A DNA stretch of 64,000 nt from a candidate division WOR-3 bacterium (lineage in GTDB: Bacteria; Hydrothermota; Hydrothermia; Hydrothermales; JAJRUZ01): the NCBI GenBank assembly GCA_039803925.1, contig JBDRZL010000005.1:9969-73968 (forward strand), read 5' to 3'. Below the pieces are notes generated by a model. It did no database searches. It saw only the letters and a program-made list of their open reading frames with translations, and was not told where the DNA came from. Shown one piece after another: positions 9,339-34,847 of this stretch. Within the stretch, counting starts at the first letter, position 1. Each line of letters starts with the position of its first letter. A program made the translations under genes and the position numbers.

Positions 9339-9340
9339 TT

Positions 9341-13244: not shown

Positions 13245-13245
13245 A

Positions 13246-14019
13246 ATGAAAGGTTTTTTATTTTTTATAATACTCACAAATCAGAGCCCTGAGGAAAGGG
13301 CTGATCTTTACATAAAGCTTGCGGATTATAAAAATGCTGTAATGGAGTATTCTGATTTGATTTTTAAAAAACCTGAAGATAAAAAATTAAGAGAAAAACT
13401 CTTATTCAGTGCAAATAAATATATTGAAAAAAATTTCCTGAAAATGGATAAAGAAATTTTGGAAAAGGCTTTATCAAAGTATAGAAATGGAGAGCTTGAT
13501 TCAGCTTTATATTTATCAAAAATTTTATACGATAAATTTTATTTTGAGCCAGAAGTAGTTACTTTTTATCAAAGATGCTTATGGACAGTTGATACTCTAA
13601 GAAAACTTTATTCCCTTTTAATAGATACTGAAAGGAAAAAAGATTATCAAGCAGCCCACAGGTATGCACTGGAGATTAAAAATATTTATCCCAGTTATCC
13701 TGAAATTGATGAAAAAATAAATTATTACTTTAGTAAAATACCGAAGGTTGAGGAAAAAAGACCCCTCGTAGTTGAAAGAAGGGAGGTAGTGAAAAAACCT
13801 GTTGAAAAACCTGTTGAAGCTGAAAAGGCTATTAAGGTGGAAGAAGATGTTCAGGCAAAAGTTCAGGAACTTTATAAAAGAGGTGTTACACTTTACAGTG
13901 AGGGAAAATTAGAAGAAGCAAGGGAAATTTTTAGAGAGATACTCAAAATTGATCCTCAAAATACAAAAGTAAGGAGAAATCTTGCAGTAATAGAAGAAAG
14001 ATTAAGGGGGAGAAGATAA
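13246..14019 (+). CDS. TPR-like repeat protein (TadD-like accessory?)
   Basis: Helical repeat sequence, C-terminal TPR-like segment LYSEGKLEEAREIFREILKIDPQNTKVRRNLAV. Sits in the Tad operon. Start set to ATG 13246. Confidence 0.45.
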   Translation: MKGFLFFIILTNQSPEERADLYIKLADYKNAVMEYSDLIFKKPEDKKLREKLLFSANKYIEKNFLKMDKEILEKALSKYRNGELDSALYLSKILYDKFYFEPEVVTFYQRCLWTVDTLRKLYSLLIDTERKKDYQAAHRYALEIKNIYPSYPEIDEKINYYFSKIPKVEEKRPLVVERREVVKKPVEKPVEAEKAIKVEEDVQAKVQELYKRGVTLYSEGKLEEAREIFREILKIDPQNTKVRRNLAVIEERLRGRR

Positions 14020-15302
14020 TGGAAAGAAAAAACTTTATTATTACAGGGCTTTTTATATCTGTAATTTCTTTAGTAGTTTTATTATATTTCTTTGGAAGGT
14101 GGGTTTTAAATGAAACAAATAGATGGCTAACAAGTGATGCGGAAAATTTTTCCAATGCAGTTTTTAGTAGTCTTGTGGAAAGTATAAAAATTCCCTGGGA
14201 AACAGGAGATGAGATAAGTTTAAGTTACATTGTGTCTCGTATGAAAAGGGAAAATAGAGATATTGAAGAAATTTCAATAATTGATAGAGAAAATACTATA
14301 ATTGCCCATACAAATACCGACTATATTTTGAGCAAATTTAAATTTCCTGATGAAGCTCCCTTTGATTTAAAAGGGGTTGGTTTTTCAATAAGGAATGATA
14401 AAGTATATATATTTAAGCCCACTTTAAGCACCCTTGGTGATACTTTAGGGTATATATACTTTACATTAAAACCAAGATCTTTAAGAGAGGGAAGAGATTC
14501 TTTAAGGAGGATTCTTTTTCTTTTTGTTGTAGCACTATCTGCACTTTTCCTCTTTTTATCTGCAATACTTGTTTTTATTTCCACTCCAGTTGAGAGAAGG
14601 AAAATAATTTATGAACCCAAATATTCTGATTTCCTTTCTTATCATATTCCTGAATCTGGTGGATATAAACCAGAGGGATGGTCCCTTTATCCTTTTTATG
14701 AAAAAGGAGAAATACCAAATATTTTTTATAAAGTTTTTAGAATTTCTCCTGAAAGATGGGGAATCTTTAGTTTCCAGATAATAAGTGGTGGTTATACTTG
14801 GTCAATTTTATTTCCCTTTATAAATTCTTTTCTCGATAAATACCTTTTCACAGAGGAGGACCCTTTTGTTGTTTTGAAAAATTTACAGGATGAATTTTCA
14901 AAGCTTATGATAAATGAAGGAATTGTTGAGGGTTCTCTTTTATTTTTTGATGAAGAAAAAGGAAAGATAAGAGGAGCAAGTTTTGGTGACCATATTCTTT
15001 ATAGAAAAAGAGAAAGTGAATTAATTCCAATCTATGAACCTGCTAAATTTTATGATTTTTCAAACAGAGTATCAGAAGTAAAGTATTTTGAAACTGAAAG
15101 AGAAGACTTTTTAATTTTAGTTACTGGTAATTTTTACAGATGGTTTAGATTTAATGAACTTATTGAAAAAATTAAAGATATAAGGGATGAAGAGGATATT
15201 AAAAAAGTTATTGAAAATTTTAAATTTTTGTATGAAGAAAGTAAAATTAAAGAAGGCATTTTGCTTTTATTCTTAAAGAAAATAAAGGAGGTAGAGGGAT
15301 GA
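14019..15302 (+). CDS. Membrane-anchored sensor-like protein with degenerate PP2C/SpoIIE-type phosphatase domain
   Basis: Two TM segments flank a ~135-aa extracytoplasmic domain. The C-terminal part follows a PP2C/SpoIIE-like pattern (GIFSFQIISGGY...GASFGDHILYRK...EDFLILVTGNFYR). Start overlaps the upstream stop. Confidence 0.35.
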   Translation: MERKNFIITGLFISVISLVVLLYFFGRWVLNETNRWLTSDAENFSNAVFSSLVESIKIPWETGDEISLSYIVSRMKRENRDIEEISIIDRENTIIAHTNTDYILSKFKFPDEAPFDLKGVGFSIRNDKVYIFKPTLSTLGDTLGYIYFTLKPRSLREGRDSLRRILFLFVVALSALFLFLSAILVFISTPVERRKIIYEPKYSDFLSYHIPESGGYKPEGWSLYPFYEKGEIPNIFYKVFRISPERWGIFSFQIISGGYTWSILFPFINSFLDKYLFTEEDPFVVLKNLQDEFSKLMINEGIVEGSLLFFDEEKGKIRGASFGDHILYRKRESELIPIYEPAKFYDFSNRVSEVKYFETEREDFLILVTGNFYRWFRFNELIEKIKDIRDEEDIKKVIENFKFLYEESKIKEGILLLFLKKIKEVEG

Positions 15303-17872
15303 ATTTATTTGTCCTTTTTCTTTTGTCCCAAACTATTTCAACACTTGTAGGAGGAGATTATATAAAGTCTTTTCATTCTGGAAAATATGTATACGAGGTC
15401 TCTCAGAGGGGTGTTGCTATTATAAATGTAGAAAAACCACAGGATCCTTTTACCGAATATGAAATACCAACACAGGGAATATCCCTGGATCTTGCAATCT
15501 CAGGTAATAATCTTTATATTCTTGATTCACAGGAAGGAATTATAGTTTATTCTTTAAAAGAGAGAGTTAAGAAAAATACATTCAAAGTTAAAAATGCAAA
15601 TTCAATTATTTCAATTCCTCCTTACTTATATGTCGGGACATCTGATGGTTTTATTGAAATATACGAAGTAAATGGATTTAATTTAAAGGGAAAAGGGAAA
15701 ATTAAGTTAAATGGGCCTCTAAATTCAATTCAAATTGCTCCACAGGGATTAGTAGCACTTGTTTCTGACTCAATTTTATCTCAGATTAAATTTTTGAAAG
15801 AAGGTAACATAACCATAGGTGAAGAATATGTATCTCCATCAAAGCTTACAAAATTTTTAGTTCTTGATACCATCATTTTATTTGGTAAAAAGGAAGGAGG
15901 ATTTTACCTTGGAAAGTTTTCAAAACCTTTTATAGAAATAGTAAAGGAAATTATTCCAACCTATGTAATTACAGGCCTTCAGATCTATGGTTCCCAGGTT
16001 TTTGTGGGAACAGAGGATGGAAGGTTATATCTACTTAGTTACCCTGATTTGAATATTATTTCAACAGCCCAATTGGTTGGTCAGATTAATGATTTTGTTG
16101 CTATTGGTAATATACTTATGGCTTCGGTTGGAAGAGCTGGTATTTCTGTTTTAAGATTACCAGATCTGGAAGAAATCAAAACTCTTGGTGGTTTTGGTTC
16201 CCTTGTATCTGCCAATGTAATGACAAAGGAAGTGCTTTATCTTCTTGATCCTCTTCTTGGAGTAAGATTTATATCTTTCTTTTCTCCCCACGATCCTCAA
16301 AAAGAAGAAGAAACTGAGCTTTTTGGAACTTTTGTGAAGATTTTAAAATTTAAAGATTTGATAATAGCAGTTATAAGGGAAGGTGGAATATGGATTTTAA
16401 ATGCTGATAGAATAAATGAGATAAAAGGGTTTCTCCCAATAGAGGGTTTTATTAATGATTGTATAGACATTGAAAATAAAATTTTTGTTGCTACTGAGAA
16501 GGGTATTATTGGTCTTGAATATAAAGATGGAAAACTATCTGAAACTTTTAATATTAAGACAGATGCGAAAACTTTAAAGTTAATTCAGATTGGTAAAAAA
16601 TTTGCAAGTCTTCAGGAAAATGGTCTTTTTATTTATGATTATGATGGTAAAATCATAGAGCACAAAATGGACATCTCTCCATACTTATACACCTTAAGAG
16701 GTAGAGAGGTTTTTATATGTGATATGACTGGTAAGATTTACAAATTTGAAGAGACACTTCAAAATATGAGTTTTCTTTTTTCTATAAAAGTTCCTGTTAC
16801 TGATTTTGTTGTTGGTAAAAACGAAATATATGTTGCCGATGCAACTAATAAAATAAAAGTTTACTCAATACCCGCAAAAAATTTGAAGTTCAGTTTTGAT
16901 TTACCTGAGCCAGTTTATTATTTAAAAATGAAATATCCTTATTTATTTATCTATGGTGGAAGCGATAGAATTTTCATATATAATGTTGGGAAGGATGTTC
17001 CTGAGTTTGTAAATAGTATAAGAACGAAGAAAGGTATAAGATCACTTGATTTTTCTGAATCAGGTATTTATGTTGGGGAAGAAAGATTTATAGAAACTTA
17101 CAGATTCTATAGATTTGAAGCACCAACAGAAATCTCATATTATTTAACTTACGGAGAACTTTACAGAGCGGTGCCTTTGAAAGAAGATAATGTCCTATAT
17201 ATTGCTGGAGGTTCTTCGGGTTTAATAGGAATTGATTTAACAAATATTTATTCTCCTGAACTCTTCTTTTATCACATACCTTCAGAGGGGGTAACTTATG
17301 ATATTCTGATTTCTCAGAGGTTTTTAATCTGTGCTAACCTTGAAGGAGGAATAGAGGTTTTTGAACTTCTCTCTAATAAAAAACCTAAGTTTTTTACAAG
17401 GATTAAGGGTGATGTTCTTTCAATTGATGTAGTTAATAATACTTTTCTGGTTGCTGGAGATAGAACGGGCATTGTAAAGGTTTATGATATGCGTGGAGGT
17501 GTTTTTTCAAAGATTTCAGAATTTTCTGAGTTTAAATTTCCTGTGCTTGATCTTGAATCATTTGGAAACTATGTTTATGCCTCTTTTGGGGATGAAGGTA
17601 TAGGAATAATTGATTTAAGTGTGCCTCACTTTCCGAGATTGAAAAAAATAATAAATCCTGGTTTTCCTGTATTTAGATTAAAAATTCTCGATGATAGAGT
17701 ATTTGCAATATGTGGTGCTTATGGTATTATTGAGTATAAACTAAAAGAAGATGGAGATTTAATTTATTTAAATCATATAGATACTCCCGGAAATGCCCAA
17801 GATGTAAATAAAATGGAGGATTATTATTTAATTTCTGATACTTATGGGCTTGAAATATATAAAAGGAGGTAA
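15299..17872 (+). CDS. Large beta-propeller repeat protein (LVIVD-type repeats) embedded in Tad locus
   Basis: 857 aa. N-terminal hydrophobic segment, then at least 12 repeats of G-hydrophobic-x-hydrophobic-hydrophobic-(D/N/E/S) blades (GIIVYSLKE, GFIEIYEV, GRLYLLSYPDLN, GISVLRLPDLEEI, GIEVFELLSN, GIVKVYDMRGG, GIGIIDLSVPHFP, GIIEYKLKEDGDL). ATGA overlap with the upstream gene. Confidence 0.55.
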   Translation: MNLFVLFLLSQTISTLVGGDYIKSFHSGKYVYEVSQRGVAIINVEKPQDPFTEYEIPTQGISLDLAISGNNLYILDSQEGIIVYSLKERVKKNTFKVKNANSIISIPPYLYVGTSDGFIEIYEVNGFNLKGKGKIKLNGPLNSIQIAPQGLVALVSDSILSQIKFLKEGNITIGEEYVSPSKLTKFLVLDTIILFGKKEGGFYLGKFSKPFIEIVKEIIPTYVITGLQIYGSQVFVGTEDGRLYLLSYPDLNIISTAQLVGQINDFVAIGNILMASVGRAGISVLRLPDLEEIKTLGGFGSLVSANVMTKEVLYLLDPLLGVRFISFFSPHDPQKEEETELFGTFVKILKFKDLIIAVIREGGIWILNADRINEIKGFLPIEGFINDCIDIENKIFVATEKGIIGLEYKDGKLSETFNIKTDAKTLKLIQIGKKFASLQENGLFIYDYDGKIIEHKMDISPYLYTLRGREVFICDMTGKIYKFEETLQNMSFLFSIKVPVTDFVVGKNEIYVADATNKIKVYSIPAKNLKFSFDLPEPVYYLKMKYPYLFIYGGSDRIFIYNVGKDVPEFVNSIRTKKGIRSLDFSESGIYVGEERFIETYRFYRFEAPTEISYYLTYGELYRAVPLKEDNVLYIAGGSSGLIGIDLTNIYSPELFFYHIPSEGVTYDILISQRFLICANLEGGIEVFELLSNKKPKFFTRIKGDVLSIDVVNNTFLVAGDRTGIVKVYDMRGGVFSKISEFSEFKFPVLDLESFGNYVYASFGDEGIGIIDLSVPHFPRLKKIINPGFPVFRLKILDDRVFAICGAYGIIEYKLKEDGDLIYLNHIDTPGNAQDVNKMEDYYLISDTYGLEIYKRR

Positions 17873-17875
17873 AAA

Positions 17876-19003
17876 ATGAGACCTAATGTAAGGAGACTTT
17901 TAATAGCTTTATCCCTGGCAGGGATAGCTGCACTTTTATTAATAAGTTATATTCAGGATGTAGAAAGGAAGACTCTAATGAAAGGTGCCCCTGAGAGAGT
18001 TCTTGTAGCAAAAAAAGATATAAGCGCAAGAACAATTATCTCAGAAGATCTTGTAGAATACAGAGAAATTCCTAAACCTTTTATAGAACCACTTGCAGTT
18101 TCAGATATAGGAGAGATTATAGGTATGGTTGCAATAACTGATATAAGAAAGGGGGAACAGATAACAAAAAATTTGCTTTTACCATTACAGACATGGACTG
18201 TTCTTTCTTCCTTTGTTCCCGAAGGTTTTAGAGCTATAACAATTCATGTGGATGAGGTTTCAGGAGTCGGAGGGTTAATACTTCCTGGAGATGAAGTAGA
18301 TGTAGTAGCAACCTTTTCTCTTGAAGATTTAAGGAGATATATTCCAGAACAGGAGCTTGAAAGATATTTAAGAAGTCCTCAACTTTACAGGGTAAGAGGA
18401 CCTTATTCTTCCTTTGCAACAATTACATATAAGGCAGTTAGAGTACTTGCAGTTGGAAGATCACTCCTTGCTTTGCCACCAACAGTTACAGAGAAAAAGA
18501 CAGGTTTTATGGGAATGCCAGAAACACAAGAATTAGAGAGGGTAACTTCAGTTACACTTGCGGTCCCAAAGGAAATTGTAAAAGAGCTTTCTCTTCTTGA
18601 GAAAATTTCAGATATAAGACTTGTTTTAAGGTCTGTGAGAGAGATAAAACTACCAGGTGAGGATACAATAATAGAAAAACCCTTAACTGTATTTGATATC
18701 TTAGAAAAATATAATCCAAAACCAAAACCTAAAAAAGTTGCGAAGGCAGCACCAACTCCAGAGGTTTCTCCTTATTCTTATATAAATATATATAAGAGAA
18801 CAGATTTGGAACAAGTAAAACTAAGAGGAAGTGAAGTAGTTGAACAAAAACCTTGGGGAGAAGGAAGAAGAAAAGGATTTGAACCTGGTCAAATTATGGA
18901 AACTTTTATGGGTTCTTATATGAAGGGAATAGAAAATGTTTTAAAGCAGGCAGGTGTTAAAGTCCCTGCTAATTTACAGGTTCCCTGCGATACCTGTTTT
19001 TGA
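17876..19003 (+). CDS. cpaB: Flp pilus assembly protein CpaB/RcpC (SAF domain)
   Basis: N-terminal TM followed by SAF-domain signature VLVAKKDISARTIISEDLVEYREIPK. Flp-pilus-assembly C-terminal domain. Confidence 0.7.
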   Translation: MRPNVRRLLIALSLAGIAALLLISYIQDVERKTLMKGAPERVLVAKKDISARTIISEDLVEYREIPKPFIEPLAVSDIGEIIGMVAITDIRKGEQITKNLLLPLQTWTVLSSFVPEGFRAITIHVDEVSGVGGLILPGDEVDVVATFSLEDLRRYIPEQELERYLRSPQLYRVRGPYSSFATITYKAVRVLAVGRSLLALPPTVTEKKTGFMGMPETQELERVTSVTLAVPKEIVKELSLLEKISDIRLVLRSVREIKLPGEDTIIEKPLTVFDILEKYNPKPKPKKVAKAAPTPEVSPYSYINIYKRTDLEQVKLRGSEVVEQKPWGEGRRKGFEPGQIMETFMGSYMKGIENVLKQAGVKVPANLQVPCDTCF

Positions 19004-20538
19004 TAAAATATATTAAAAAAATAAGTCCTGAAAAAATAGTTAAAAGATTCGAATATTTTGTAAAAAGGAAATCAAAAACTGAAGCCTTTTTAACTTTTTT
19101 ATCCTTTATAGGTTTAAGATTTTTCTTTGAAACTTTATTAGAATCTGCACATGCTGTTGAAAATAAATTTGATTTTATTTTACATTTTTACCTCTTTTTT
19201 ATAGCACTTTTCATTTTAATTTATATTTATTTAAGGTTTTTTTTTGAAAAAGAATTTATATTTAAACTTATATGTTATGGTTTTTTTATTATAATTTTAC
19301 CCCCTTTTGTTGATTTTATACTATCAGGTGGAAAAGGTTTTGTTTTGAGCTATTTAACAAAAACCTCACAAATACCTACTATATATTTTTCTCTCTTTAC
19401 TTCACCTTTCACAGTAACCTTTGGTGCAACACCAGGAATTAAAATTGAAGTTTTAATTATTGATTTTTTTCTTTCTATTTATCTTTTTTTTAGATTAAGT
19501 GGAATAAAAAAAAAGATTATACCGATTTTAAATTTTTTTATCTTTCCTTTTTTCCCTCTTCTTTTGAGCTCAATTTTTGCTATAGAAGAACTATATTATT
19601 ATTCACTTGTTACTCCGATTTTTATTGCAAAGCCTACAATTCCAAATCTTTTTTTTATAATAATAATCTTAGTTCTTTCTTTTTTTGCTTTTAAAGAATA
19701 TTTTCCAGAAAGAGTAAATATTTTTTCCTTTATATTTCCTTTTATAACTCTTTTAGTAATTGTTTTATATTCTATTAAAATTAGTGAATTTGTTCCGAGA
19801 TTTCTCTTTTTGCCTGGTAATATCCTTTATATTATATTACAAACTCTTTCGGTATTTTTTTTATATATATCCTTTAATAGAGAAAAATTGTACATTTTAC
19901 CTTTAGTCCTATCCTTTCTCTTGATTTCTATCCAATCTTCAGCTACAATAGTTGCTTTTTTTGTTTTTTCATTATGTTTTTATGTTTACAGAAATTACCC
20001 CTTCTTATATAACTTTTTGTTTTTAACTTATTCTTTAATTATAGGACTTACTTTCTTTGCTCTCGGAAGTAAAATTCCTTTTCCTGATTTTAAAAATCAT
20101 ATTTTCAGATTATCAGCGGATTTCTATAAGAAAGAGAAAAAATACTCTAAAGCAATTAATCTTTTATCAAAGATTTCCAAAAAAGAATTCTACGATTACT
20201 TTAAATTATCAGAGTTATCTTTTTTAAATGGGGATTTTATGGATTTTGATATTTTTCTTGAAATTTCACAGATTAAATATATTTCAGCCCCTCCTCACTA
20301 TAGATCAATAGATAATAGGGTAGATTTCTGGAAACTGGAAAAGGAAAGATTCTTGAAAGAAAAAGATTATTCCCTTTTATACATGACAGCACTCTCTGTT
20401 TTAAATCCAAGAGTTGAAAGTGAAAATATACTTAAATTTCTTTATGAATTGAGTGATAATATTGAAGAGAGAGAAAAATTAAAATTGAAAAAATTTTTAG
20501 CTATATATGGGTATAAAAAGTTTTCCACATACCCTTGA
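19000..20538 (+). CDS. Polytopic membrane protein (about 12 TM) with C-terminal soluble helical domain; unknown function
   Basis: Highly hydrophobic F/I/L-rich segments through about aa 360, then a charged helical C-terminal region. ATGA overlap with cpaB. Confidence 0.4.
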   Translation: MIKYIKKISPEKIVKRFEYFVKRKSKTEAFLTFLSFIGLRFFFETLLESAHAVENKFDFILHFYLFFIALFILIYIYLRFFFEKEFIFKLICYGFFIIILPPFVDFILSGGKGFVLSYLTKTSQIPTIYFSLFTSPFTVTFGATPGIKIEVLIIDFFLSIYLFFRLSGIKKKIIPILNFFIFPFFPLLLSSIFAIEELYYYSLVTPIFIAKPTIPNLFFIIIILVLSFFAFKEYFPERVNIFSFIFPFITLLVIVLYSIKISEFVPRFLFLPGNILYIILQTLSVFFLYISFNREKLYILPLVLSFLLISIQSSATIVAFFVFSLCFYVYRNYPFLYNFLFLTYSLIIGLTFFALGSKIPFPDFKNHIFRLSADFYKKEKKYSKAINLLSKISKKEFYDYFKLSELSFLNGDFMDFDIFLEISQIKYISAPPHYRSIDNRVDFWKLEKERFLKEKDYSLLYMTALSVLNPRVESENILKFLYELSDNIEEREKLKLKKFLAIYGYKKFSTYP

Positions 20539-20595
20539 CAAAAATACCCCTTTAAATTTATAATTATATTGAGGGTAAGATAGTGGGAGGTAAAA

Positions 20596-20769
20596 ATGAA
20601 GGTAATAAAATTAATATATAACGAAAAGGGTGAGGCCGCAGTTGAATATGCGGTCTTAATTGGAATTTTTGGATTTCTTGGTATTTTTCTATTAAATTAT
20701 GCTCTTTTCCTCCTCGGAAGTGATCTCCTTTATAAATGGTATAATTTTTTTTACTCATTAAAACCATGA
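20596..20769 (+). CDS. flp: Flp/Fap family pilin (57 aa)
   Basis: RBS GGAGG at 20586. MKVIKLIYNEKGEAAVEYAVLIGIF with the Flp motif G-x-A/T-A-V-E-Y-A then a hydrophobic helix. Below the ORF-track length cutoff. Confidence 0.7.
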   Translation: MKVIKLIYNEKGEAAVEYAVLIGIFGFLGIFLLNYALFLLGSDLLYKWYNFFYSLKP

Positions 20770-20918
20770 AAATCGTAAAAAGGGAAGAAGGTGCTGTTGC
20801 TATCGAGTATGCTCTTATTATAGGAGTGATTGCCCTATTTTCTTATTTGGCCTGGAAAATGTTAGGTTTTGTTTTAAGACTTGTTGTAATGAAGCTTTTA
20901 TATGTTTTATTATGGTAA
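20766..20918 (+). CDS. flp: Flp/Fap family pilin (50 aa)
   Basis: MKIVKREEGAVAIEYALIIGVIALF. ATGA overlap with the previous pilin. Confidence 0.7.
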   Translation: MKIVKREEGAVAIEYALIIGVIALFSYLAWKMLGFVLRLVVMKLLYVLLW

Positions 20919-20931
20919 AGGAGGTCTGAAT

Positions 20932-22347
20932 ATGAGTAAAAAAAGAAGAGGTCAGGTAATGGTAGAGGCAGCAATTGGTATGGCTTTATTTTTGATGCTC
21001 ACTCTTGGTGCCATTGAAACTGCAAGATTTGCTTTGAGGAGAATTCAGATTACTTATGCATCCTTTCAGGCAAATAGGGTTGCTATTGTAAATAAAGGTG
21101 ATACAACTGCTGTTAGAAAGGCACTTCAATCTATTTCAACACACATAAAAGATGCTAAATTTGAGTTAAAGGATGAAGGAGATGAATATTCTTTAGTTGT
21201 TAGAAGAACCTTTCACCCCTTGATTCCTTTTGTTAATGTGGATTCATTAGTTTTTGTAGGTTATTCAAGACTTCCGAAAGGTCATTTTCAGAATAAAGAA
21301 TTTCCTTATAAATATAAAGGTTATAGCACGTATTATCCTGCTTTATGGAATTCTTCAGATATGGAAGATGAAAAGGAAGCTGGAATTTTAACTTATGATA
21401 GGTATTTAAGGGCTTTTATAAGGTGTGAGAATAATAGGTATGAGAGGTGGAATCCTGGGTGGGGACCTTTTGGGGAATATGGTGGTGGAGGTGAAGCAGA
21501 AGTCAAGGTTGGTGGAAAGGATGAACCTAATGATCCTTTTCATCTTGGAACATGGTATCCACCTTATGGAATTCTGAGAAACAAAAATCCGGAGAAAGAT
21601 AGAACAGGAAATCAAGCTTTAATTGACCAGTATTATTTTGTTGAAGCAATGTTAATAGGACCATCTTTTTCTCCCTTTTTGACTTTTTATCCTGAGAATA
21701 AACCTTACTGGTCAAGGGCAATTACTGGATTTGGTCATGGTAATAATATAAATAAGGGTAGTGATGCTCATCCTTACAGGGGAGATTTCCTGGAATATTT
21801 TTATTCTCAGGGATATGCTATACCAGGATGGTTTGGTTTCTGGCCAAGGTATGAGGCATTATGGTGGACACCTGTAGGTTGTGCTGACCTTGTTACAGGA
21901 ATTTACTATATAGGAATGGGTAATCAGTGGTTTTCAGATCCATGGGGAGAGTATTACAAAGATGAGGACAATTATATTTCAGGGTGGGGAACAGCATATG
22001 CTGATGCCTGTTGGGATCCGATTCGTACTCCATGGGGATGTATCCCTGGAGCAGGAGTTGGTGATGATTTTCAATTTACAATTTTTAATGGATGGTTTGC
22101 AAATTACAGGGGAACCGGCTCACCCTGGGACTGGAAAGGGACAAGGAGACTTTATGATGCTGCTTTTTATGTAGCTACTTTTAATGAGATTGAATGGATA
22201 TATATGGTTGAAGGTTTTATGGTAGATCATCCTGATCACGGAAAATCTCTTCCTTTTAAGGATGATTTAAGGGGATGGGGGACAAAGTGGGATTGTTTAT
22301 GGTATGAAAGCCCATGGGATGAGTGGGATGGCACAGAAAAACAATAA
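20932..22347 (+). CDS. TadE-like pseudopilin with large Trp/Gly/Tyr/Pro-rich C-terminal domain
   Basis: RBS AAAGGAGG. N-terminus RRGQVMVEAAIGMALFLMLTLGAIE is the TadE motif. The C-terminal ~300 aa carries about 24 Trp (WNPGWGPF, GWFGFWPRYEALWW, SPWDWKG, RGWGTKWDCLWYESPWDEWDG). Confidence 0.6.
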   Translation: MSKKRRGQVMVEAAIGMALFLMLTLGAIETARFALRRIQITYASFQANRVAIVNKGDTTAVRKALQSISTHIKDAKFELKDEGDEYSLVVRRTFHPLIPFVNVDSLVFVGYSRLPKGHFQNKEFPYKYKGYSTYYPALWNSSDMEDEKEAGILTYDRYLRAFIRCENNRYERWNPGWGPFGEYGGGGEAEVKVGGKDEPNDPFHLGTWYPPYGILRNKNPEKDRTGNQALIDQYYFVEAMLIGPSFSPFLTFYPENKPYWSRAITGFGHGNNINKGSDAHPYRGDFLEYFYSQGYAIPGWFGFWPRYEALWWTPVGCADLVTGIYYIGMGNQWFSDPWGEYYKDEDNYISGWGTAYADACWDPIRTPWGCIPGAGVGDDFQFTIFNGWFANYRGTGSPWDWKGTRRLYDAAFYVATFNEIEWIYMVEGFMVDHPDHGKSLPFKDDLRGWGTKWDCLWYESPWDEWDGTEKQ

Positions 22348-22358
22348 GGAGGTGTGAT

Positions 22359-23378
22359 ATGAAGAAAAGAAAAGGTGCAATTTTAGTTTTTGGTATTTTT
22401 TTCATGTTGATAGTTTTTGCTGTTATGGGTTATGTTTATGAAATGGGAAGAATGACAATTGCAAAGATGAGGGCACAGAATGCGGCTGATGCTTCAGCAA
22501 TGGGAGCTCAAACTGTTCTTTCCAATTTAAGGAATATAGCAACAACTCATTATATGACAGCGGATCTTTTCAGAAGAATTGCAGTTACAACAACATCAAG
22601 AGATTTTCCTTTAAGTATGCCGTGGTTATATATATATCTTATAGGTTATTCCTGGTATAAGAAAGATCTTTTTGTTAATGATTTACCGGATGAAACTGCG
22701 GAAAACTTTGTTAAACTTTATCATTTTCTTTTTCATATTCAGGATTTTGCTGTTACAAGAATGCTTGCTGCTTATGATTCCAAAATATTTTTCAGAGATT
22801 TTATAAAAGAGGAAGCAGAGAATCATTTTCCAGTAACAAGAAATAGAATGAAATGGGTTGCTTGGTTTATGAGTTACTTTAATTTATATGATGAAAATCA
22901 GGTTGAAGGTAACGAAATTGGATGGGTCAATCTAAGATTTGATAAGAACGGTCCAGGGTGGGCTCCACCTGGTTTAAGGGTTGATTATGGTGAGGAAGTT
23001 GATGGGCCTAACCCCCACAGGAGAATAAGAAATAAGCATGATGAGATTGAAATTAATAAAAAACTTAGTAGAGCTTACAGTGAAGCTTATGTCCTTATAC
23101 CACCTTCCAATTTTTTGATGAGGACTTTTGTTTCAAGAAACTGGGGTAAAATTGGTGCAATTAAAGAACCTTTCAGTTTTCTTGAAGGTTTTCCATTTGT
23201 TGTTAGAAGTGATGCTGCTTCGGGTCCCAAAGAATTTTACATAAGAGTGGGTTTGCCAGATATTATACCTTTAATAGGCTCACTTCAGGAAGACGGATAT
23301 TGGACATTTCCACAGCTTATACCTACAATAAGAGTAGAAGGTAATAACCCCATTGAGGGTCAATGGCCTTATCATTAA
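22359..23378 (+). CDS. TadG-like protein (Flp pilus-assembly TadG N-terminal domain)
   Basis: RBS AAGGAGG. MKKRKGAILVFGIFFML...AKMRAQNAADASAMGAQTVL matches the TadG_N pattern (RxxLQNAADAAALAGA). Confidence 0.6.
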   Translation: MKKRKGAILVFGIFFMLIVFAVMGYVYEMGRMTIAKMRAQNAADASAMGAQTVLSNLRNIATTHYMTADLFRRIAVTTTSRDFPLSMPWLYIYLIGYSWYKKDLFVNDLPDETAENFVKLYHFLFHIQDFAVTRMLAAYDSKIFFRDFIKEEAENHFPVTRNRMKWVAWFMSYFNLYDENQVEGNEIGWVNLRFDKNGPGWAPPGLRVDYGEEVDGPNPHRRIRNKHDEIEINKKLSRAYSEAYVLIPPSNFLMRTFVSRNWGKIGAIKEPFSFLEGFPFVVRSDAASGPKEFYIRVGLPDIIPLIGSLQEDGYWTFPQLIPTIRVEGNNPIEGQWPYH

Positions 23379-23395
23379 ATAAAGGGGGTTTTAAA

Positions 23396-24154
23396 ATGAA
23401 GGGTAATAAGATAAAATTAAATAAGAGGAAAGGAACATTTCTGGTAGAACTTGCGATTATACTTCCTATTTTTGTTTTGCTTTTATCCTGGATTTTTATG
23501 TTAGGAATGATATTGCATAGGAAGCAGGTAGTAACTCTTGCAGCAAGAGCAGGAGCTCAGTATGCTGTTTATCCTGATCCTGTATATGGTGAGCGTATGG
23601 CAAAAATGGGGGTATGGATGGCTCTCTCTCAGGGTAAAAGAGATGAGGTTGAAAAGAGGGTTAAAGATGTTTTAAAAAGGAATGGTTTAAATCCAGATAA
23701 GGCAAAAATAAATATTGATTGGTTCCCAGTTCCTTTTGTTCCTCCTTTTAAAGAAGGAAGTGTTCAAAATCCTGGTCAAAACGGAAGAGCAACAGTTCAT
23801 GCTCTTTACACAGACATGTTAGGTGGAAACAACTGTAGCACAAGATGCCATTCAGGACTTGTCAGACAGGAACTTAAGAGAGAGTTTGATGATGATTCAA
23901 GGTATAGATACACAGAATACAGAATTCCATGTGATATATGGGTTGTTAAGGTAAAGGTGGAGTACCCACTTGGAGAATCAATACTCAATCTTTTAAATCC
24001 TATATTCAAATCAGTTGGATTTAAAGGTGATTTAAAACAAGGAAAAGTTGTTGCAAGTTGTGCATTTCCTGCTCCTATGCCTTTTGTCCATGTTGTTTTA
24101 AAAACACCACCCTTATATAAAGCATTATTTGACATTTCAACATACTTTAAGTAG
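23396..24154 (+). CDS. TadE-like pseudopilin
   Basis: KGTFLVELAIILPIFVLLLSWIF TadE motif. Four Cys in the soluble domain. Confidence 0.6.
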   Translation: MKGNKIKLNKRKGTFLVELAIILPIFVLLLSWIFMLGMILHRKQVVTLAARAGAQYAVYPDPVYGERMAKMGVWMALSQGKRDEVEKRVKDVLKRNGLNPDKAKINIDWFPVPFVPPFKEGSVQNPGQNGRATVHALYTDMLGGNNCSTRCHSGLVRQELKREFDDDSRYRYTEYRIPCDIWVVKVKVEYPLGESILNLLNPIFKSVGFKGDLKQGKVVASCAFPAPMPFVHVVLKTPPLYKALFDISTYFK

Positions 24155-24157
24155 AAT

Positions 24158-24664
24158 ATGAATATGATGAAAAAATTAATTCTAATTTTTTTAATAATGA
24201 TGTTAAACTGTAAGTTTAATAATCCTTTTTATCCAAAAGCTGAAATTGTTGTATCAAGTAATCTTCAGACTATAACTCTGAGTTATGAAATATCGCCAGG
24301 ACAAATAAGGTTAACATATCCAAAATTGAAATTATTTTTCAGAGAGATCTATGGTGGAACTTACGGAATAATTGACTCTGCAAGAGTTGATTACTATTAC
24401 CCAGGTTCAGATCCAATTAGAGATTCTATAGTTGAAACACTTCCCACTTACAGAAAAGGTATTTTACTTTATGTTCCACCTGACAATGAAGTTACAACTG
24501 AGTTTGATTTAGTTACAGATGATGTAGAAAATTTATTTGCCCCTAACAAAGGTAATTTTGAAGGTCCTCTCAATGCTATTATGACATTTTATGGAAAAGA
24601 TGGAAATGAACATAATTTTAAACTTTTTTTAACTTTTACTTTACAAAGAGTTATACCTGATTAA
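24158..24664 (+). CDS. Lipoprotein, Tad locus-associated, unknown function
   Basis: Signal peptide with lipobox MLNCK. 168 aa. Confidence 0.5.
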   Translation: MNMMKKLILIFLIMMLNCKFNNPFYPKAEIVVSSNLQTITLSYEISPGQIRLTYPKLKLFFREIYGGTYGIIDSARVDYYYPGSDPIRDSIVETLPTYRKGILLYVPPDNEVTTEFDLVTDDVENLFAPNKGNFEGPLNAIMTFYGKDGNEHNFKLFLTFTLQRVIPD

Positions 24665-24702
24665 ATGGGTTCAAATCCCAAAAAAACATAGGAGGTTTTA
24701 AG

Positions 24703-24873
24703 ATGAAGTTTTTAAGGTGTGAGAGAGGAGCGACAGCAGTGGAGTATGCGATGATAATAGGGCTTATAGCCCTATTTGCATTTGCTGCCTATAAGGCTCT
24801 TGGAAAGCAGGTTCAGAGGGTGATCCACGAAATGTGGAATAAGATGACAGAAGCCTCTGCTGGGCCTGAGTAA
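24703..24873 (+). CDS. flp: Flp/Fap family pilin (56 aa), copy 1 of duplicated pair
   Basis: RBS GGAGG. MKFLRCERGATAVEYAMIIGLIALFAFAAYKALGKQ... The upstream region and the gene together (24661-24873) are about 98% identical to 25101-25313. Confidence 0.75.
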   Translation: MKFLRCERGATAVEYAMIIGLIALFAFAAYKALGKQVQRVIHEMWNKMTEASAGPE

Positions 24874-24916
24874 TTTTATAAAATTTATGGGGTTCAAATC
24901 CCCCCTGCCCTTTAAG

Positions 24917-25093
24917 ATGATTATGCTAAAAAATATTCTGATAGATGAAAGGGCGGGGACGAGTGTGGAATATGGATTTCTTCTCGGAATTTCTGGTCTC
25001 TCTGCTTTTTATGCTTATGTTGCTAAAAAAGTAGAAGATTTAATAAATGAATTTACAACAAAGTTTTTTTATATATATGCTGGACCTCCATAA
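24917..25093 (+). CDS. flp: Flp/Fap family pilin (58 aa), divergent
   Basis: MIMLKNILIDERAGTSVEYGFLLGISGLSAF. No clear Shine-Dalgarno. Preceded by the GGTTCAAATCC motif. Confidence 0.55.
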   Translation: MIMLKNILIDERAGTSVEYGFLLGISGLSAFYAYVAKKVEDLINEFTTKFFYIYAGPP

Positions 25094-25142
25094 TAGATAT
25101 ATTTTAGGGTTCAAATCCCAAAAAAACATAGGAGGTTTTAAG

Positions 25143-25313
25143 ATGAAGTTTTTAAGGTGTGAGAGAGGAGCGACAGCAGTGGAGTATGCGATGATAATAG
25201 GGCTTATAGCCCTATTTGCATTTGCTGCCTATAAGGCTCTTGGAAAGCAGGTTCAGAGGGTGATCCACGAAATGTGGAATAAGATGACAGAAGCCTCTGC
25301 TGGACCTGAATGA
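25143..25313 (+). CDS. flp: Flp/Fap family pilin (56 aa), copy 2 of duplicated pair
   Basis: Identical to the 24703 gene except for the last codons. The ORF-track N-terminal extension from 25047 is an artifact. Confidence 0.75.
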   Translation: MKFLRCERGATAVEYAMIIGLIALFAFAAYKALGKQVQRVIHEMWNKMTEASAGPE

Positions 25314-25477
25314 TGAAGTTGTTAATAAGGGAAGAAAAAGGTGCATCTGCAGTTGAATATGCGATGCTTATAGGACTTATTTCTCTTTATGCTTTTGCAG
25401 CTTATAGAGCACTTTCAAGGGTGACTTATGCGGTAATAGAGCATATGTGGAATGAATTAACAAAAGCAGGGGGGTAA
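25310..25477 (+). CDS. flp: Flp/Fap family pilin (55 aa)
   Basis: MMKLLIREEKGASAVEYAMLIGLISLYAFAAYRAL. ATGA overlap with the previous pilin. Confidence 0.65.
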   Translation: MMKLLIREEKGASAVEYAMLIGLISLYAFAAYRALSRVTYAVIEHMWNELTKAGG

Positions 25478-25482
25478 TAACT

Positions 25483-25656
25483 ATGAAGAAATTTTTTAAA
25501 AATGAGAAAGGTGCTACTGCTGTTGAATATGCAATGATTATAGGGTTGATAGCATTATTTGCTTTTGCTGCTTATAAGGCACTTGGAAAAGAGGTTCACA
25601 GGATAATTGTATGGATGAAGTTTAAATTTATGACTATCCATGCTGGTCCTGAATGA
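25483..25656 (+). CDS. flp: Flp/Fap family pilin (57 aa)
   Basis: MKKFFKNEKGATAVEYAMIIGLIALFAFAAYKALGKE. Confidence 0.7.
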   Translation: MKKFFKNEKGATAVEYAMIIGLIALFAFAAYKALGKEVHRIIVWMKFKFMTIHAGPE

Positions 25657-26198
25657 TTTATGATATTATTAAGTTCCAAATTGTTGGACTTGTTGTGATA
25701 ATTTCAGTATATACTGATTTAAAATACGGTAAGATTTTTAATAAATTGACATTCCCTTTCTTTTTTACAGGATTTCTTTATAACTTTATGTTTAAAGGAT
25801 TTTCTGGTTTAGTTTCTTCCTTTATAGGTTTTTTGGTATCTTTTATTCCCTTTTTTATATTCTTTCAGCTGGGTGGGGTTGGTGGTGGTGATGTGAAACT
25901 TCTTGCAGGTATAGGTTCCTGGGTTGGTTATCCTCAGGTTCTTTGGATTATTTTTATGACTTCTATTTCAGGTCTTTTTATATCTATCTTGGTGAGTCTT
26001 TTTAAGGGTAAAATTGAATTTGTTTTAAAGGGTGCTTTTAGGGAAGGAAAAGAAAGTGTTAGAAATTTTATCTTTTCTCTATTTACTAAAAATCCAGAAT
26101 TTTTAGATAAAAATAGAGAATTTAAACTTTATGTTCCCTATTCTTTAGCCATAGCATCTGGGACTTTTTTAGGTTTAATAATTAATTTTTCACTATGA
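25653..26198 (+). CDS. tadV: Prepilin peptidase CpaA/TadV (A24 family)
   Basis: Multi-TM protein with the conserved second catalytic Asp in GGGDVKLLAGIG. ATGA overlap with the last flp gene. Confidence 0.75.
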   Translation: MIYDIIKFQIVGLVVIISVYTDLKYGKIFNKLTFPFFFTGFLYNFMFKGFSGLVSSFIGFLVSFIPFFIFFQLGGVGGGDVKLLAGIGSWVGYPQVLWIIFMTSISGLFISILVSLFKGKIEFVLKGAFREGKESVRNFIFSLFTKNPEFLDKNREFKLYVPYSLAIASGTFLGLIINFSL

Positions 26199-26284: not shown

Positions 26285-29260
26285 ATGTATTTATTCTTTC
26301 TTATATCTTTTATCTCTTTAAATGGAGATTTTAACAGGGTTTATATTCCTTCAAAAGAACTTTTAAAACCTTGTGCTAAGTATGCCCCCTCTTATGCAAC
26401 TGAAATTTTAAATTCTGAGTTTGGAGAAAGTGCTTTCGTGTTATTTGGTAATTTTGGGTTTCCAAGACTTATTTCAAATTTTGAGCTCTCTGTTCCAGGG
26501 AAAAATGGACTGGAAAAAGCATATAACTTCTTAAGTTTAAAAGGGGAAGTATTAGGAATAGATTATAAGTATCTTTCCTTAATAAAGAGCATAGAAGATG
26601 AGTTAGGGTATACTCATGTAATTTTTGAGGAAGTTATAAATGGGATAAGGATTGAAAATTCTTTTGTAGGAGTTCATATAAATAAGAGAGGTAATGTTTA
26701 TTATGTCTCTTCTGATTACTTTCCTTATGATGGGACTCCTCTTAAAACTAATTCCAGAATAACAGAAAGAGAAGCTTTAAGTATTATTTATTCTGACCTT
26801 AGCTTAAAGGTTTTTCCAGAAGAGTATAAGAGCGAGCTTGTTTATTATCCTTATGAAAATTCCCTTATTCTTGTTTATAAAATAAGGTTTGTTTCAGAAT
26901 ATCCACTCGGTGATTTTGTTTATTACATTGATGCAATAAATGGTTCAATTGTTGAAAGGAGAAATGAATTAAAATCTGTTTATGGCTATGTATATGGATG
27001 GTGTTTCCCAAATACTGGTGCTGATGGACTTCAGAAGTATCCGATGGCAAACCAGTATGTTTATATTGGTTCTTCAACAGCCACAACAAATTCAAGTGGA
27101 TACTATTCAAGTTCAACTTCTGGAAACATAACAGCTTATCTTGAAGGTCCCTATGTTAAAGTTTTTAACGATGATAATCCACCTGGAAGAGCAGTTTTTA
27201 CTTCTTCTGGAGGTTCGGTAACATATACTGTTCAAAACGTATCTTACACATGGGATAATACTACCACTTCAACTGGTTTAACAGGTGATGATCAGACAAA
27301 GCAGTTTACTCTTCCCTTTTCTTTCCCCTTCTATGGAAAGAATTATTCATCAGTTTATATTTGCACAAATGGATTTTTAAGTTTTACTTCTAATTCAAAC
27401 AAGTATACACCTGACCCTATTCCCAATACCAATGCTCCAAATGCTCTTATAGCTGTTTTCTGGAGAGACCTTAATCCTGCTGCAGGTGGTGGTTCAATAA
27501 CCTATTATTCTGGTTCAGATAAGTTTGTTGTTACCTGGGATAACATTAAAAATTACAGTAATTCAAACAGACAGAGTTTTCAGGTGGTTTTGTATCCTAA
27601 TGGTAATATAGAATTTAGATATAAGTCAATAACCAATGACTATACAACTACAAGGGGTGTAGAAAATGAAAACGGAACAGCTGGTGTTACAGTTTCAACA
27701 CCTTCAAATAATACTGCATATAGATTAGTTCCGCAACAGGGTGGGGGAGGAAGTGAAGTTTCATGGGAGTGGAAGTATCCTTCTGACGAATCAACAGAGG
27801 GTAAACATACAACTGAGGTTATGGTGTTTTATCATGTGAACAAAATACATGATTTTTATAAAGGAACCTTCGGTTTTACAGGAATGGATTATCAGATTCA
27901 GGCAACTGTTTATTCTCACTCAGTGGACCAACATTATCAGGGAGCTAATGCTTATTATTATAATGGAACAATGCATTTTGGAAGGGGAAATTCAAGTTAT
28001 CAAATTCAGAATATGGCAAGGTCTGCTGATGTTATATACCATGAATACACGCATGGAGTTGTAGATAAGATTTATGCAAATGCAGGTGGTTTACCATATA
28101 GTGGACAGTCAGGTGCTATGAATGAAGCATGGGCTGATTATTGGGCATGCACTCAATCAGGTGACCCTGTTATGGGAGAATGGGTTATGCCATCCCAGTA
28201 CCAGAGAAATTTGCAGAATAATTATAAGTATCCTGATGACTGGGTGGGGGAGGTTCATGATGATTCAAGAATTTATTCAGGTGCATTATGGGATTTCAGG
28301 ACATATACTGATAAAACAACTGCTGATAGAGTAACGTGGAGAGCTTATACCTACTATCCAAAAGATTTTCTTGCTGGTAGAAATGCAATGATTCAGGCTG
28401 ATAAGGATCTCTATGGAGGTTCTCATGAAAGTCAAATAATTCAAGCTTTTGCAAGACACGGGATAGGTGGTTCAAGTGCAAGGTATGATATGAGGCAGGC
28501 TTCTTATTCATGGGTTACAACTTCAACACCTACAGGAATAACAGGTGATGATCAAACAATCAAATTCACCCTTCCTTTCTCATTCACTTTCTTTGGTTCC
28601 TCTTATTCTTCAGTATATGTTTGCAGTAACGGATGGCTTTCCTTCACCTCAAATTCTACATCCTATACACCTCAGAATATGCCCAATTCCACAGCTCCAA
28701 ATGCAGTTATTGCTCCTTACTGGAGAGACCTCTATCCACCTGATACAACTCAGGGAGCAAAGATAACCTATGCTTCCAATTCATCATATTTTGCTGTAAC
28801 CTGGTATAAAATTAAGAATTATTCTAATGCTAACAAACAAACCTTTCAGGCTATACTTTACAAAAATGGAACAATAAGGTTTAATTATCAGACTGTTACT
28901 GATGAATATACAACAGCTGTTGGTATTGAGGATGCAAATGGAGTTAATGCTTATCTTTATGCATATGGAACAGGAAGTGTCCTTCCAAGGAGTAACTCAG
29001 CAATAGAATTTGTTCCTCAATCTCAGGTTAGTGTGTTTGCATCAGCTGGAGAGAAGGGAGATATTAAATTTATTGGTAACAGGGAAGTTTATGAACTTAT
29101 TGAAAGCCCCTATTCAAAATTTGATGTATATGATGTTTCAGGTAGAAAGTTAAGTGTTTCAGAATTCAAAAAGATTAAAAATAATGGTTCAGGAGTTTAC
29201 TTCCTTATTCCCTATAATTACAAAGAGAAAAACATAAATAAAGTTGTGATTGTGAAATGA
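26285..29260 (+). CDS. Secreted thermolysin-like (M4/M36-type gluzincin) metalloprotease with duplicated ~150-aa accessory domains and a T9SS C-terminal sorting domain
   Basis: Signal peptide. HEYTHGV (HExxH) plus downstream GAMNEAWADYWA Glu-zincin motif. An N-terminal propeptide-like region. Two internal repeats, TG(L/I)TGDDQT..FTLPFSF.F.G..YSSVY.C.NG.LSFTSNS..YTP...PN..APNA.IA..WRDL, at about aa 320-470 and 740-890. C-terminal tail YDVSGRKLS...KVVIVK. Confidence 0.7.
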   Translation: MYLFFLISFISLNGDFNRVYIPSKELLKPCAKYAPSYATEILNSEFGESAFVLFGNFGFPRLISNFELSVPGKNGLEKAYNFLSLKGEVLGIDYKYLSLIKSIEDELGYTHVIFEEVINGIRIENSFVGVHINKRGNVYYVSSDYFPYDGTPLKTNSRITEREALSIIYSDLSLKVFPEEYKSELVYYPYENSLILVYKIRFVSEYPLGDFVYYIDAINGSIVERRNELKSVYGYVYGWCFPNTGADGLQKYPMANQYVYIGSSTATTNSSGYYSSSTSGNITAYLEGPYVKVFNDDNPPGRAVFTSSGGSVTYTVQNVSYTWDNTTTSTGLTGDDQTKQFTLPFSFPFYGKNYSSVYICTNGFLSFTSNSNKYTPDPIPNTNAPNALIAVFWRDLNPAAGGGSITYYSGSDKFVVTWDNIKNYSNSNRQSFQVVLYPNGNIEFRYKSITNDYTTTRGVENENGTAGVTVSTPSNNTAYRLVPQQGGGGSEVSWEWKYPSDESTEGKHTTEVMVFYHVNKIHDFYKGTFGFTGMDYQIQATVYSHSVDQHYQGANAYYYNGTMHFGRGNSSYQIQNMARSADVIYHEYTHGVVDKIYANAGGLPYSGQSGAMNEAWADYWACTQSGDPVMGEWVMPSQYQRNLQNNYKYPDDWVGEVHDDSRIYSGALWDFRTYTDKTTADRVTWRAYTYYPKDFLAGRNAMIQADKDLYGGSHESQIIQAFARHGIGGSSARYDMRQASYSWVTTSTPTGITGDDQTIKFTLPFSFTFFGSSYSSVYVCSNGWLSFTSNSTSYTPQNMPNSTAPNAVIAPYWRDLYPPDTTQGAKITYASNSSYFAVTWYKIKNYSNANKQTFQAILYKNGTIRFNYQTVTDEYTTAVGIEDANGVNAYLYAYGTGSVLPRSNSAIEFVPQSQVSVFASAGEKGDIKFIGNREVYELIESPYSKFDVYDVSGRKLSVSEFKKIKNNGSGVYFLIPYNYKEKNINKVVIVK

Positions 29261-32803: not shown

Positions 32804-32837
32804 TTTTTCCCCCTTTATAATGAAAAGGATTTGAACC

Positions 32838-34799: not shown

Positions 34800-34847
34800 A
34801 TTTTTACCTCCTTATTAACTATCCTTTATTTTACGAAATATTAATTT

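Follow-up and report, generated by a model that had tools for sequence, protein, structure and literature searches.

An orphan tryptophan-rich module on a TadE-family pseudopilin in a Tad pilus locus of a candidate division WOR-3 bacterium

Tad systems require minor pilins of the TadE, TadF, and TadG types for piliation; in AlphaFold models, these pilins assemble into a tip complex with exposed variable domains (PMC12075869, PMC11870444). Tomich et al. (2006, PMC1595517) described TadV-type peptidases as processing Flp, TadE, and TadF. Work on CpaL and GspK provided the consensus G/A-X4-F/E and indicated that the subunit without Glu at position +5 (Glu+5) is the first, apical subunit (PMC11870444). 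In the modeled Myxococcus tip, the extended C-terminal regions of KilL wrap their partners (PMC12075869). The functional modules of modular pilins, which are widespread, are displayed probably at the tip; many of these modules have no database signature (PMC8179133). Pili and a diderm envelope were reported for a cultured WOR-3 strain (PMC12285271). In the present study, we analyzed a stretch of 64,000 nucleotides (nt) from a candidate division WOR-3 bacterium (contig JBDRZL010000005.1; hereafter, the window), which carries a Tad locus. We focused on the gene at 20932-22347, here called TadE-W, the protein product of which has a two-part layout. A TadE-type pilin module (aa 1-118; aa, amino acids) is followed by an extra module rich in Trp (W), which occupies aa 119-471. 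With its approximately 350 aa, this module accounts for three quarters of the 471 aa of TadE-W. In a composite reading, to which we give even chances, TadE-W is a modular minor pilin of the Tad priming/tip complex and displays its W-rich module outside the cell.

TadE-W proved to be a genuine gene and not a merger of two. A strong ribosome-binding site precedes its start codon (Table 1). A longer open reading frame (ORF) from the ATG at 20902 exists, and all orthologues start at the Met equivalent to 20932. An NCBI entry identical to the TadE-W protein is named 'MAG: TadE family protein [candidate division WOR-3 bacterium]' (MAG, metagenome-assembled genome). A search of 5.8 billion proteins returned nine homologues, which are full-length, show 39-93% identity, and each have a TadE domain; a precomputed PF07811 match was present in 9/9. 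Genome and metagenome scans added further TadE-W loci from MAGs of WOR-3 and 'Candidatus Hydrothermales'. The orthologues total approximately 13, and they share the same fused architecture at 39-94% identity in independent assemblies from several samples. The ratio of non-synonymous to synonymous substitutions (dN/dS, Nei-Gojobori) was 0.05-0.09 in all four regions of TadE-W when the window was paired with the related locus L001 (dS about 0.6), and 0.02-0.17 for the L006/L007 pair. The junction of the pilin module and the C-terminal module also lies under purifying selection. These low ratios exclude a frameshift fusion or a non-coding artefact, as do the uninterrupted ORF in independent assemblies and the synteny. 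The large non-pilin module is grafted within a conserved single ORF.

The N terminus of TadE-W is a class III signal peptide, MSKKRRG/QVMVEAAIGMALFLMLTLGAI (the slash marks the predicted cleavage site), which opens as MSKKRRG/QVMVE with Gly at -1 and Glu at +5. In the alignment of ten TadE-W sequences, residue -1 was Gly or Ala and Glu+5 (E12) was invariant. In agreement with the TadE-like N terminus noted in the initial annotation of this DNA, aa 7-47 matched PF07811 at 29.9 bits, which passes the Pfam gathering threshold of 22.9. A weak match to NF041390 (TadE_Rv3655c, NCBIfam) covered aa 11-104. The hydropathy profile revealed aa 7-31 as the sole hydrophobic segment of the protein. AlphaFold2 (AF2) modeled the pilin module as a helix (3-53) followed by three strands (76-81, 85-94, and 106-115), with a predicted local distance difference test score (pLDDT) of 50-67. 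A word-index search with the N-terminal 118 aa, performed for the lengths of other TadE proteins, returned only five candidates and one fragment. By every criterion of sequence and context that we applied, TadE-W is very probably a TadE-family pseudopilin.

The composition of the C-terminal part is extreme. TadE-W contains 23 Trp residues: none in aa 1-130 and all 23 in aa 131-471 (6.7%), with 22 in the last 301 aa (7.3%). The initial annotation had counted approximately 24 (approximately 8%) in approximately 300 aa; the richness holds, and the count is slightly lower. It had proposed a comparison with the rest of the proteome. Within the window, Trp amounts to 0.72% in 54 other ORFs, which total 18,907 aa; the next richest is the adjacent gene with 2.8%. 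The frequency in the module is approximately 9-fold the local level, and the binomial probability of at least 23 Trp in 341 aa is approximately 2e-15. The reported abundance of Gly, Tyr, Pro, and Asp was also borne out: aa 131-471 contain 12.3% Gly (42/341), 8.5% Tyr (29/341), 7.0% Pro (24/341), and 7.6% Asp (26/341), versus 6.3, 4.9, 4.0, and 4.6%, respectively, in the window. From the PKG motif at residue 115 to the C terminus, 21.6% of the residues are aromatic, and the protein is acidic from residue 119 onwards (49 Asp+Glu versus 31 Lys+Arg). The codon usage was described as disfavoring Trp. Trp usage is low at the GC content of the window (approximately 31%); however, the wording is loose because only one codon encodes Trp. 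A Trp content of 6-7% is clearly higher than is typical of aromatic-rich modules such as carbohydrate-binding modules (CBMs), GW modules, choline/glucan-binding repeats, and W_rich_C.

This richness is maintained across the family. Trp accounts for 4.5-7.3% of the C-terminal part in every homologue. In the alignment, invariance is complete for only W208, W401, and W453 and nearly so for four further Trp. Trp occurs one or more times in 55 columns, the majority of which exchange it for Phe or Tyr. Lineage-specific insertions, that is, columns absent from TadE-W, contain 11.3% Trp (11/97). As judged from these alignments, the Trp richness of the module is selected and is conserved as a composition. 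In contrast, the clustered WxxW and GW motifs that had been reported did not stand out from the composition. When the C-terminal part was shuffled 5,000 times, GW (5 versus 2.75 expected, P=0.12), WG (5 versus 2.8), PW (4 versus 1.6), and WxxW (1 versus 1.44) were at expectation, and WxxxW was marginal (4 versus 1.45, P=0.046). The best self-alignment of TadE-W scored 44 versus 42.7 +/- 6.2 for shuffles and thus revealed no internal repeats. In a literature search on tryptophan-rich minor pilins, the term 'tryptophan-rich' was absent from the eight best-ranked of 188 papers with at least two of the three terms searched.

We were unable to connect the module with any known family. A module-only profile retrieved only its own two clusters in an exhaustive hmmsearch of 1.84 billion cluster representatives, and searches with eight members found zero Pfam families at E values up to 10. 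No match was obtained in NCBIfam and PHROGs or, by tblastn, in phage genomes and plasmids. Searches of the PDB by phmmer or hmmsearch also returned no match (best profile E=0.86). Accordingly, neither Pfam (E up to 10) nor the PDB profile search linked the module to lectins, CBMs, or any other known type of binding domain. Descent from the neighboring pseudopilins was considered separately. BLASTP gave a weak hit to the TadG-like neighbor (E=0.016), but an origin from this protein was rejected with an hhalign probability of 0.6%, and an origin from the second TadE-family neighbor (TadE-like 2) was rejected with an hhalign probability of 0.2%. At the level of detection by sequence and profile, the module has no relatives beyond the approximately 13 orthologues of its own lineage. 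The search for similar W-rich modules on minor pilins, which the initial annotation had recommended, thus succeeded within this lineage and found none outside it. Its suggestion of structure prediction was unproductive: AF2 reached a pLDDT of 36.8 with the full-length alignment (10 sequences) and 30.3 with the module alone (8 sequences), values that are unusable for the module. Foldseek with the low-confidence full-length model found no match in the PDB at E<=0.001. Since the sequence and profile searches were empty, AF2 failed, and Foldseek gave no match, no fold is assignable to the module. Of the two findings that were named as speaking against the initial annotation, namely, a known lectin-type module and a frameshift merging two genes, neither was made.

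The homologue alignment divides the module into a conserved core and a variable part. The core comprises aa 119-282 and aa 401-455. Its first part carries the motifs PKGxxQNK, GILTYDR, GGxGEAE, FHLGxWYPPxGILRN, and KPYxSRAITGFGHGxN, the last of which includes SRAITGFGHGxN. The conserved C-terminal part (aa 401-471) carries WKGTRRLYDAAF, HG, KDDLRG, and WxC; RRLYDAAF and KDDLRG are counted among the motifs of the core. Invariant polar residues of the core are D156, R157, E166, E171, E188, D197, H204, R216, D232, K257, R262, H269, N272, R405, R406, D409, H436, K443, D444, D445, and C455. Between the two core parts, aa 283-400 form the least conserved and most Trp-dense long segment of TadE-W. 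This segment is mostly deleted or replaced in a short subfamily (P0007-P0009), with a gap fraction of up to 0.95, and in the L006/L007 and L004/L005 pairs, its dN exceeds that of the pilin module or core by a factor of 2-8. The module is 47-60% identical between pairs of genomes; in the same pairs, identity is 62-67% for TadV, the other two pseudopilins (TadG-like and TadE-like 2), and the protease encoded after tadV.

The TadE-W, TadG-like, and TadE-like 2 genes are adjacent and syntenic in eight loci, and only the TadG-like protein lacks Glu+5. We propose the following sequence of events. TadV would remove the seven-residue leader of TadE-W, and the cleaved pilin module would join the TadG-like and TadE-like 2 subunits, thereby priming Flp polymerization. 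The TadG-like subunit would probably go first and sit at the apex because it has Phe at +5, by analogy with GspK and CpaL. [quoted passage not shown] The conserved, polar-rich core would form the fold and a docking surface, and the variable, Trp-dense, and indel-prone aa 283-400 may be exposed and contact a ligand outside the cell.

The initial annotation had suggested a pilus tip adhesin. A bona fide pseudopilin with a grafted module is in keeping with this suggestion. The tip is also a reasonable location because TadE-W is the first of three adjacent minor-pilin genes, an arrangement that was modeled as a tip complex elsewhere. On this analogy, we slightly favor display of the W-rich module at the pilus tip. 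On the other hand, a binding family, a motif excess, and a usable structure are all absent. Moreover, TadE-W retains Glu+5, and by analogy its TadG-like neighbor is the likelier apical subunit. Binding of a glycan or surface by the module is possible, and we consider it less likely than not. If there is a ligand, a glycan or other surface bound by aromatic stacking is the most plausible one that we infer. The names 'adhesin' and 'carbohydrate binder' are, therefore, used here for TadE-W as hypotheses only.

Several observations weigh against a tip-displayed binding module. The AF2 models (pLDDT 36.8 and 30.3) provide no view of the surface exposure of Trp. The Trp columns mostly exchange with Phe and Tyr, and a buried aromatic core fits this pattern equally well. 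GW and WxxW are not above the level expected from composition, and repeats are absent. Purifying selection is strong and divergence is only modestly above that of the neighbors (47-60% versus 62-67% identity); the module is thus unlike a rapidly diversifying adhesin. Published tip models place the large distal domain on the TadG/KilN/CpaL subunit rather than on a TadE-type subunit. Furthermore, the many invariant His, Asp, Glu, and Arg residues may instead mark a catalytic or metal site.

In the rival explanation that survives best, the extension is a scaffold only. It would wrap or lock the TadG-like and TadE-like 2 subunits and stabilize the priming complex at a high temperature, with no ligand of its own and with Trp residues serving in aromatic cores and interfaces. 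The order of TadE-type, TadG-type, and TadE-type genes parallels kilL-kilN-kilM, and extensions of KilL were modeled as wrapping partners. Strong purifying selection on a large invariant core of polar and aromatic residues, the exchange of Trp chiefly with Phe and Tyr, the strict co-distribution of TadE-W with its TadG-like partner, and the hot environments of these organisms are also consistent with a scaffold. However, a module of 350 aa is larger than either partner. In addition, aa 283-400 change while the partners remain 62-67% identical, which better suits an outward surface than an interface. We consider a role as a scaffold alone to be unlikely.

It is less probable still that TadE-W is a pilus-displayed or periplasmic enzyme. 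The module would contain a metal-dependent catalytic core, for example, that of a hydrolase acting on polymers or on the envelopes of prey or hosts, which would use His204, His269, and His436 together with acidic residues. Its invariant charged and polar residues are unusually many (D156, E166, E171, E188, D197, H204, D232, H269, D409, H436, D444, and D445), the locus encodes secreted proteases, and modular pilins with peptidase modules exist (PMC8179133). However, the module has no similarity to an enzyme family by sequence or profile and no recognizable catalytic motif.

In type II secretion systems (T2SS), the tips formed by minor pseudopilins (GspK/I/J) bind substrates. By the same principle, the W-rich module may sit at the pseudopilus tip of a T2SS-like secretion machine and contact cargo, namely, the 991-aa M4/M36-NIDO protease. 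In all loci examined, also in L009, the locus of the most distant orthologue, tadV is followed by a large gene that presumably encodes this protease. However, synteny by itself is no proof of secretion. Seven Flp-type genes, RcpC, a TadZ-like ATPase, and TadD-like parts typify pilus-forming Tad systems, and the cultured WOR-3 bacterium is piliated (PMC12285271). We regard a secretion tip as quite improbable. The weakest explanation is a TadE gene merged with a downstream gene or a common module of the lectin, CBM, or GW type. Only the length, which is unusual for a TadE protein, speaks for it, and it is highly improbable in view of the uninterrupted ORF in independent assemblies, selection across the junction, empty Pfam and exhaustive HMM (hidden Markov model) searches, and absence of repeats.

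The features of TadE-W and its surroundings are summarized in Table 1. The locus at 8040-26198 contains a complete Tad/Flp (type IVc) pilus set, including TadV, Flp, TadA/B/C, a secretin, and RcpC. Gene order is kept in seven related loci (L001-L007), and the part from the pseudopilins to the protease is also kept in L009.

Table 1. Features of the TadE-W gene and the surrounding Tad locus (positions in the window; a slash marks the predicted cleavage site)
Feature	Position	Strand	Evidence and remarks
Secretin RcpA/CpaC	8040-9338	+	Pfam
TadZ-TadA fusion ATPase, 724 aa	9341-11515	+	Pfam
TadB	11509-12345	+	Pfam
TadC	12312-13244	+	Pfam
Tetratricopeptide repeat (TPR) TadD-like protein	13201-14019	+	Pfam
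427-aa protein with N-terminal transmembrane segment, without Tad family assignment	14019-15302	+	
857-aa beta-propeller protein, weak WD40/LVIVD/PorZ-like matches	15299-17872	+	
RcpC/CpaB	17876-19003	+	Pfam
512-aa polytopic membrane protein, no family match	19000-20538	+	
Flp-type gene, 57 aa, G/EAAVEY	20596-20769	+	ORF, class III motif scan
Flp-type gene, 50 aa, G/AVAIEY	20766-20918	+	Flp_Fap match below cutoff; class III motif scan
Ribosome-binding site AAGGAGG	20918-20924	+	7 nt ahead of ATG 20932; read from sequence
TadE-W gene (TadE-family modular pseudopilin)	20932-22347	+	471 aa plus stop; PF07811; orthologues share architecture
Leader peptide MSKKRRG, aa 1-7, basic	20932-20952	+	TadV cleavage predicted after Gly7
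Pilin module, aa 8-118, hydrophobic alpha1 helix and small beta-sheet	20953-21285	+	PF07811, NF041390, AF2
Conserved core part 1, aa 119-282	21286-21777	+	Alignment invariants; block identity 0.56-0.85; no family, PDB, or profile match
Variable part, aa 283-400, 11 Trp	21778-22131	+	Block identity 0.34-0.58
Conserved C-terminal part, aa 401-471, 7 Trp	22132-22344	+	Invariants W401, R405-D409, H436, K443-L446, W453, C455
TadG-like pseudopilin, 339 aa, PF13400	22359-23378	+	Leader MKKRKG/AILVF, Phe at +5
Second TadE-family pseudopilin (TadE-like 2), 253 aa	23393-24154	+	Leader KRKG/TFLVE; PF07811 34.3 bits; syntenic in all loci
Putative lipoprotein, 168 aa, conserved	24158-24664	+	Signal sequence with Cys at the N terminus; orthologues have a G-C lipobox; syntenic; no family match
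Five Flp-type genes	24703-24873, 24917-25093, 25143-25313, 25310-25477, 25483-25656	+	G/xxxVEY motifs
TadV/CpaA-type prepilin peptidase (Peptidase_A24)	25653-26198	+	PF01478, E=7.8e-20
991-aa M4/M36 (thermolysin/fungalysin) secreted-type metalloprotease, FTP propeptide and NIDO domains	26285-29260		Directly after tadV

The TadG-like family has nine homologues, which are restricted to this lineage and co-distributed with those of TadE-W, as the lengths of the contigs that carry the two sets agree. Because the TadG-like neighbor shares this narrow distribution, the three pseudopilins form a lineage-specific set. The TadG-like protein matched PF13400 only, with no vWA or other recognizable C-terminal domain. 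Separately, the partner pseudopilins (22359-24154) are themselves moderately enriched in Trp (1.5-2.8% versus the 0.72% background). The seven Flp-type genes of the locus comprise two upstream of TadE-W and five downstream, one of which (25143-25313) matched PF04964. The same small upstream pair also precedes the distant TadE-W orthologue in L009. The 56-aa products of two downstream genes (24703-24873 and 25143-25313) are identical, which points to a recent tandem duplication of roughly 440 bp.

Other genes of the locus also have unusual features. The secretin (Secretin and T2SS-T3SS_pil_N domains) bears a C-terminal Cu_amine_oxidN1 (copper amine oxidase N-terminal-like) domain. TadZ/CpaE-like and TadA/CpaF ATPases are usually encoded by separate genes; here, a TadZ/CpaE-like ParA/MinD-type domain (AAA_31, CbiA) is fused to a TadA/CpaF ATPase (T2SSE). 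The genes for the 857-aa and 512-aa proteins keep their position in all related loci that extend to them (L001-L003 and L005-L007), and that for the 427-aa protein is present in L001-L003, the only loci that extend so far upstream. A large ORF of a similar size follows tadV in all loci extending past this gene (L002, L003, L004, L006, L007, and L009), and its similarity to the protease of the window was confirmed for L003 and L009 at 66-67% identity. The protease may possibly be linked in function to the Tad system. Outside the locus, the gene at 575-2461, which lies upstream, encodes an S8 subtilase that bears a dockerin type I domain. A 653-aa protein with LVIVD repeats is encoded at 32838-34799 on the minus strand, amid several large ORFs without a family match (31004-36245, minus strand).

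Recent work proposed that minor-pilin tip complexes with variable domains customize Tad pili, and the few domains characterized are on the TadG-type subunit. The TadE-W locus adds a clean natural example, from a barely studied thermophilic phylum, of a large module on a TadE-type subunit. This module is an extreme compositional outlier with no relatives among 15 billion proteins, and it resists AF2. It may be a new fold that founds a new class of pilus-displayed domains. A binding surface built from Trp, possibly with a metal site of His, Asp, and Glu, would then be carried on the TadE-type subunit of thermophilic WOR-3/Hydrothermales and serve to recognize a specific ligand in the environment, for example, a glycan, a mineral or sulfur surface, or a partner cell. 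We consider this idea to be rather doubtful. If a new binding fold is present, the catalogue of pilus-tip modules will become wider and a handle will be gained on what uncultured bacteria attach to. If the module is a scaffold only, it will be a lineage-specific curiosity. The composition of the module and its lack of relatives and of a predictable fold are striking, but variable tip modules on Tad pili are already an expected theme.

The likeness of TadE-W to known aromatic binding modules is compositional only. It shares a high content of aromatic residues and Gly with CBMs, GW modules, choline/glucan-binding repeats, and W_rich_C (PF07483), and is also predicted to be extracellular; however, it has no profile match, no repeats, and no excess of GW or WxxW. 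In its architecture, TadE-W resembles PilB (vWA) and PilC (lectin) of Streptococcus sanguinis (PMC8179133, PMC9934059), in which a small N-terminal pilin module is followed by a bulky C-terminal module, and tip display of a functional module would be expected in both cases. Raynaud et al. (2021) defined modular type IV pilins by an N-terminal pilin module and a further module that is not specific to pilus biology and takes a direct part in a pilus function; of these features, the two-part layout is clear in TadE-W. PilB and PilC are type IVa-like (IPR012902) and have recognizable modules for which ligand binding was demonstrated, whereas TadE-W is a Tad pseudopilin with a signature-less module.

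The closest relatives by sequence and context are TadE and TadF of Aggregatibacter actinomycetemcomitans and CpaJ and CpaK of Caulobacter. PF07811, a short basic leader that suits a TadV/CpaA peptidase, Gly-1, Glu+5, and a position in a tad locus beside a TadG-like gene are shared, and TadE-W would likewise be expected to function in the priming of pilus assembly. Classical TadE and TadF are short, with a pilin module alone and a length of roughly 150-200 aa; in contrast, TadE-W has 471 aa with an additional module of 350 aa. The KilL/KilM/KilN tip of Myxococcus (PMC12075869) and the CpaJ/CpaK/CpaL tip of Caulobacter (PMC11870444) are similarly encoded by three adjacent genes of the TadE, TadG, and TadE types, one of which lacks Glu+5. 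They also include at least one subunit with a large domain without known homologues, and small Flp-type minor pilins are encoded alongside. In these tips, the large distal domain, often a vWA domain, is on the TadG/KilN/CpaL subunit. In the present locus, the TadG-like protein is small (339 aa) with no vWA match, and the module has no similarity outside its lineage. What sets TadE-W apart from the described Tad tips is thus a compositionally extreme orphan module, other than vWA, that is carried on the Glu+5 TadE-type subunit.

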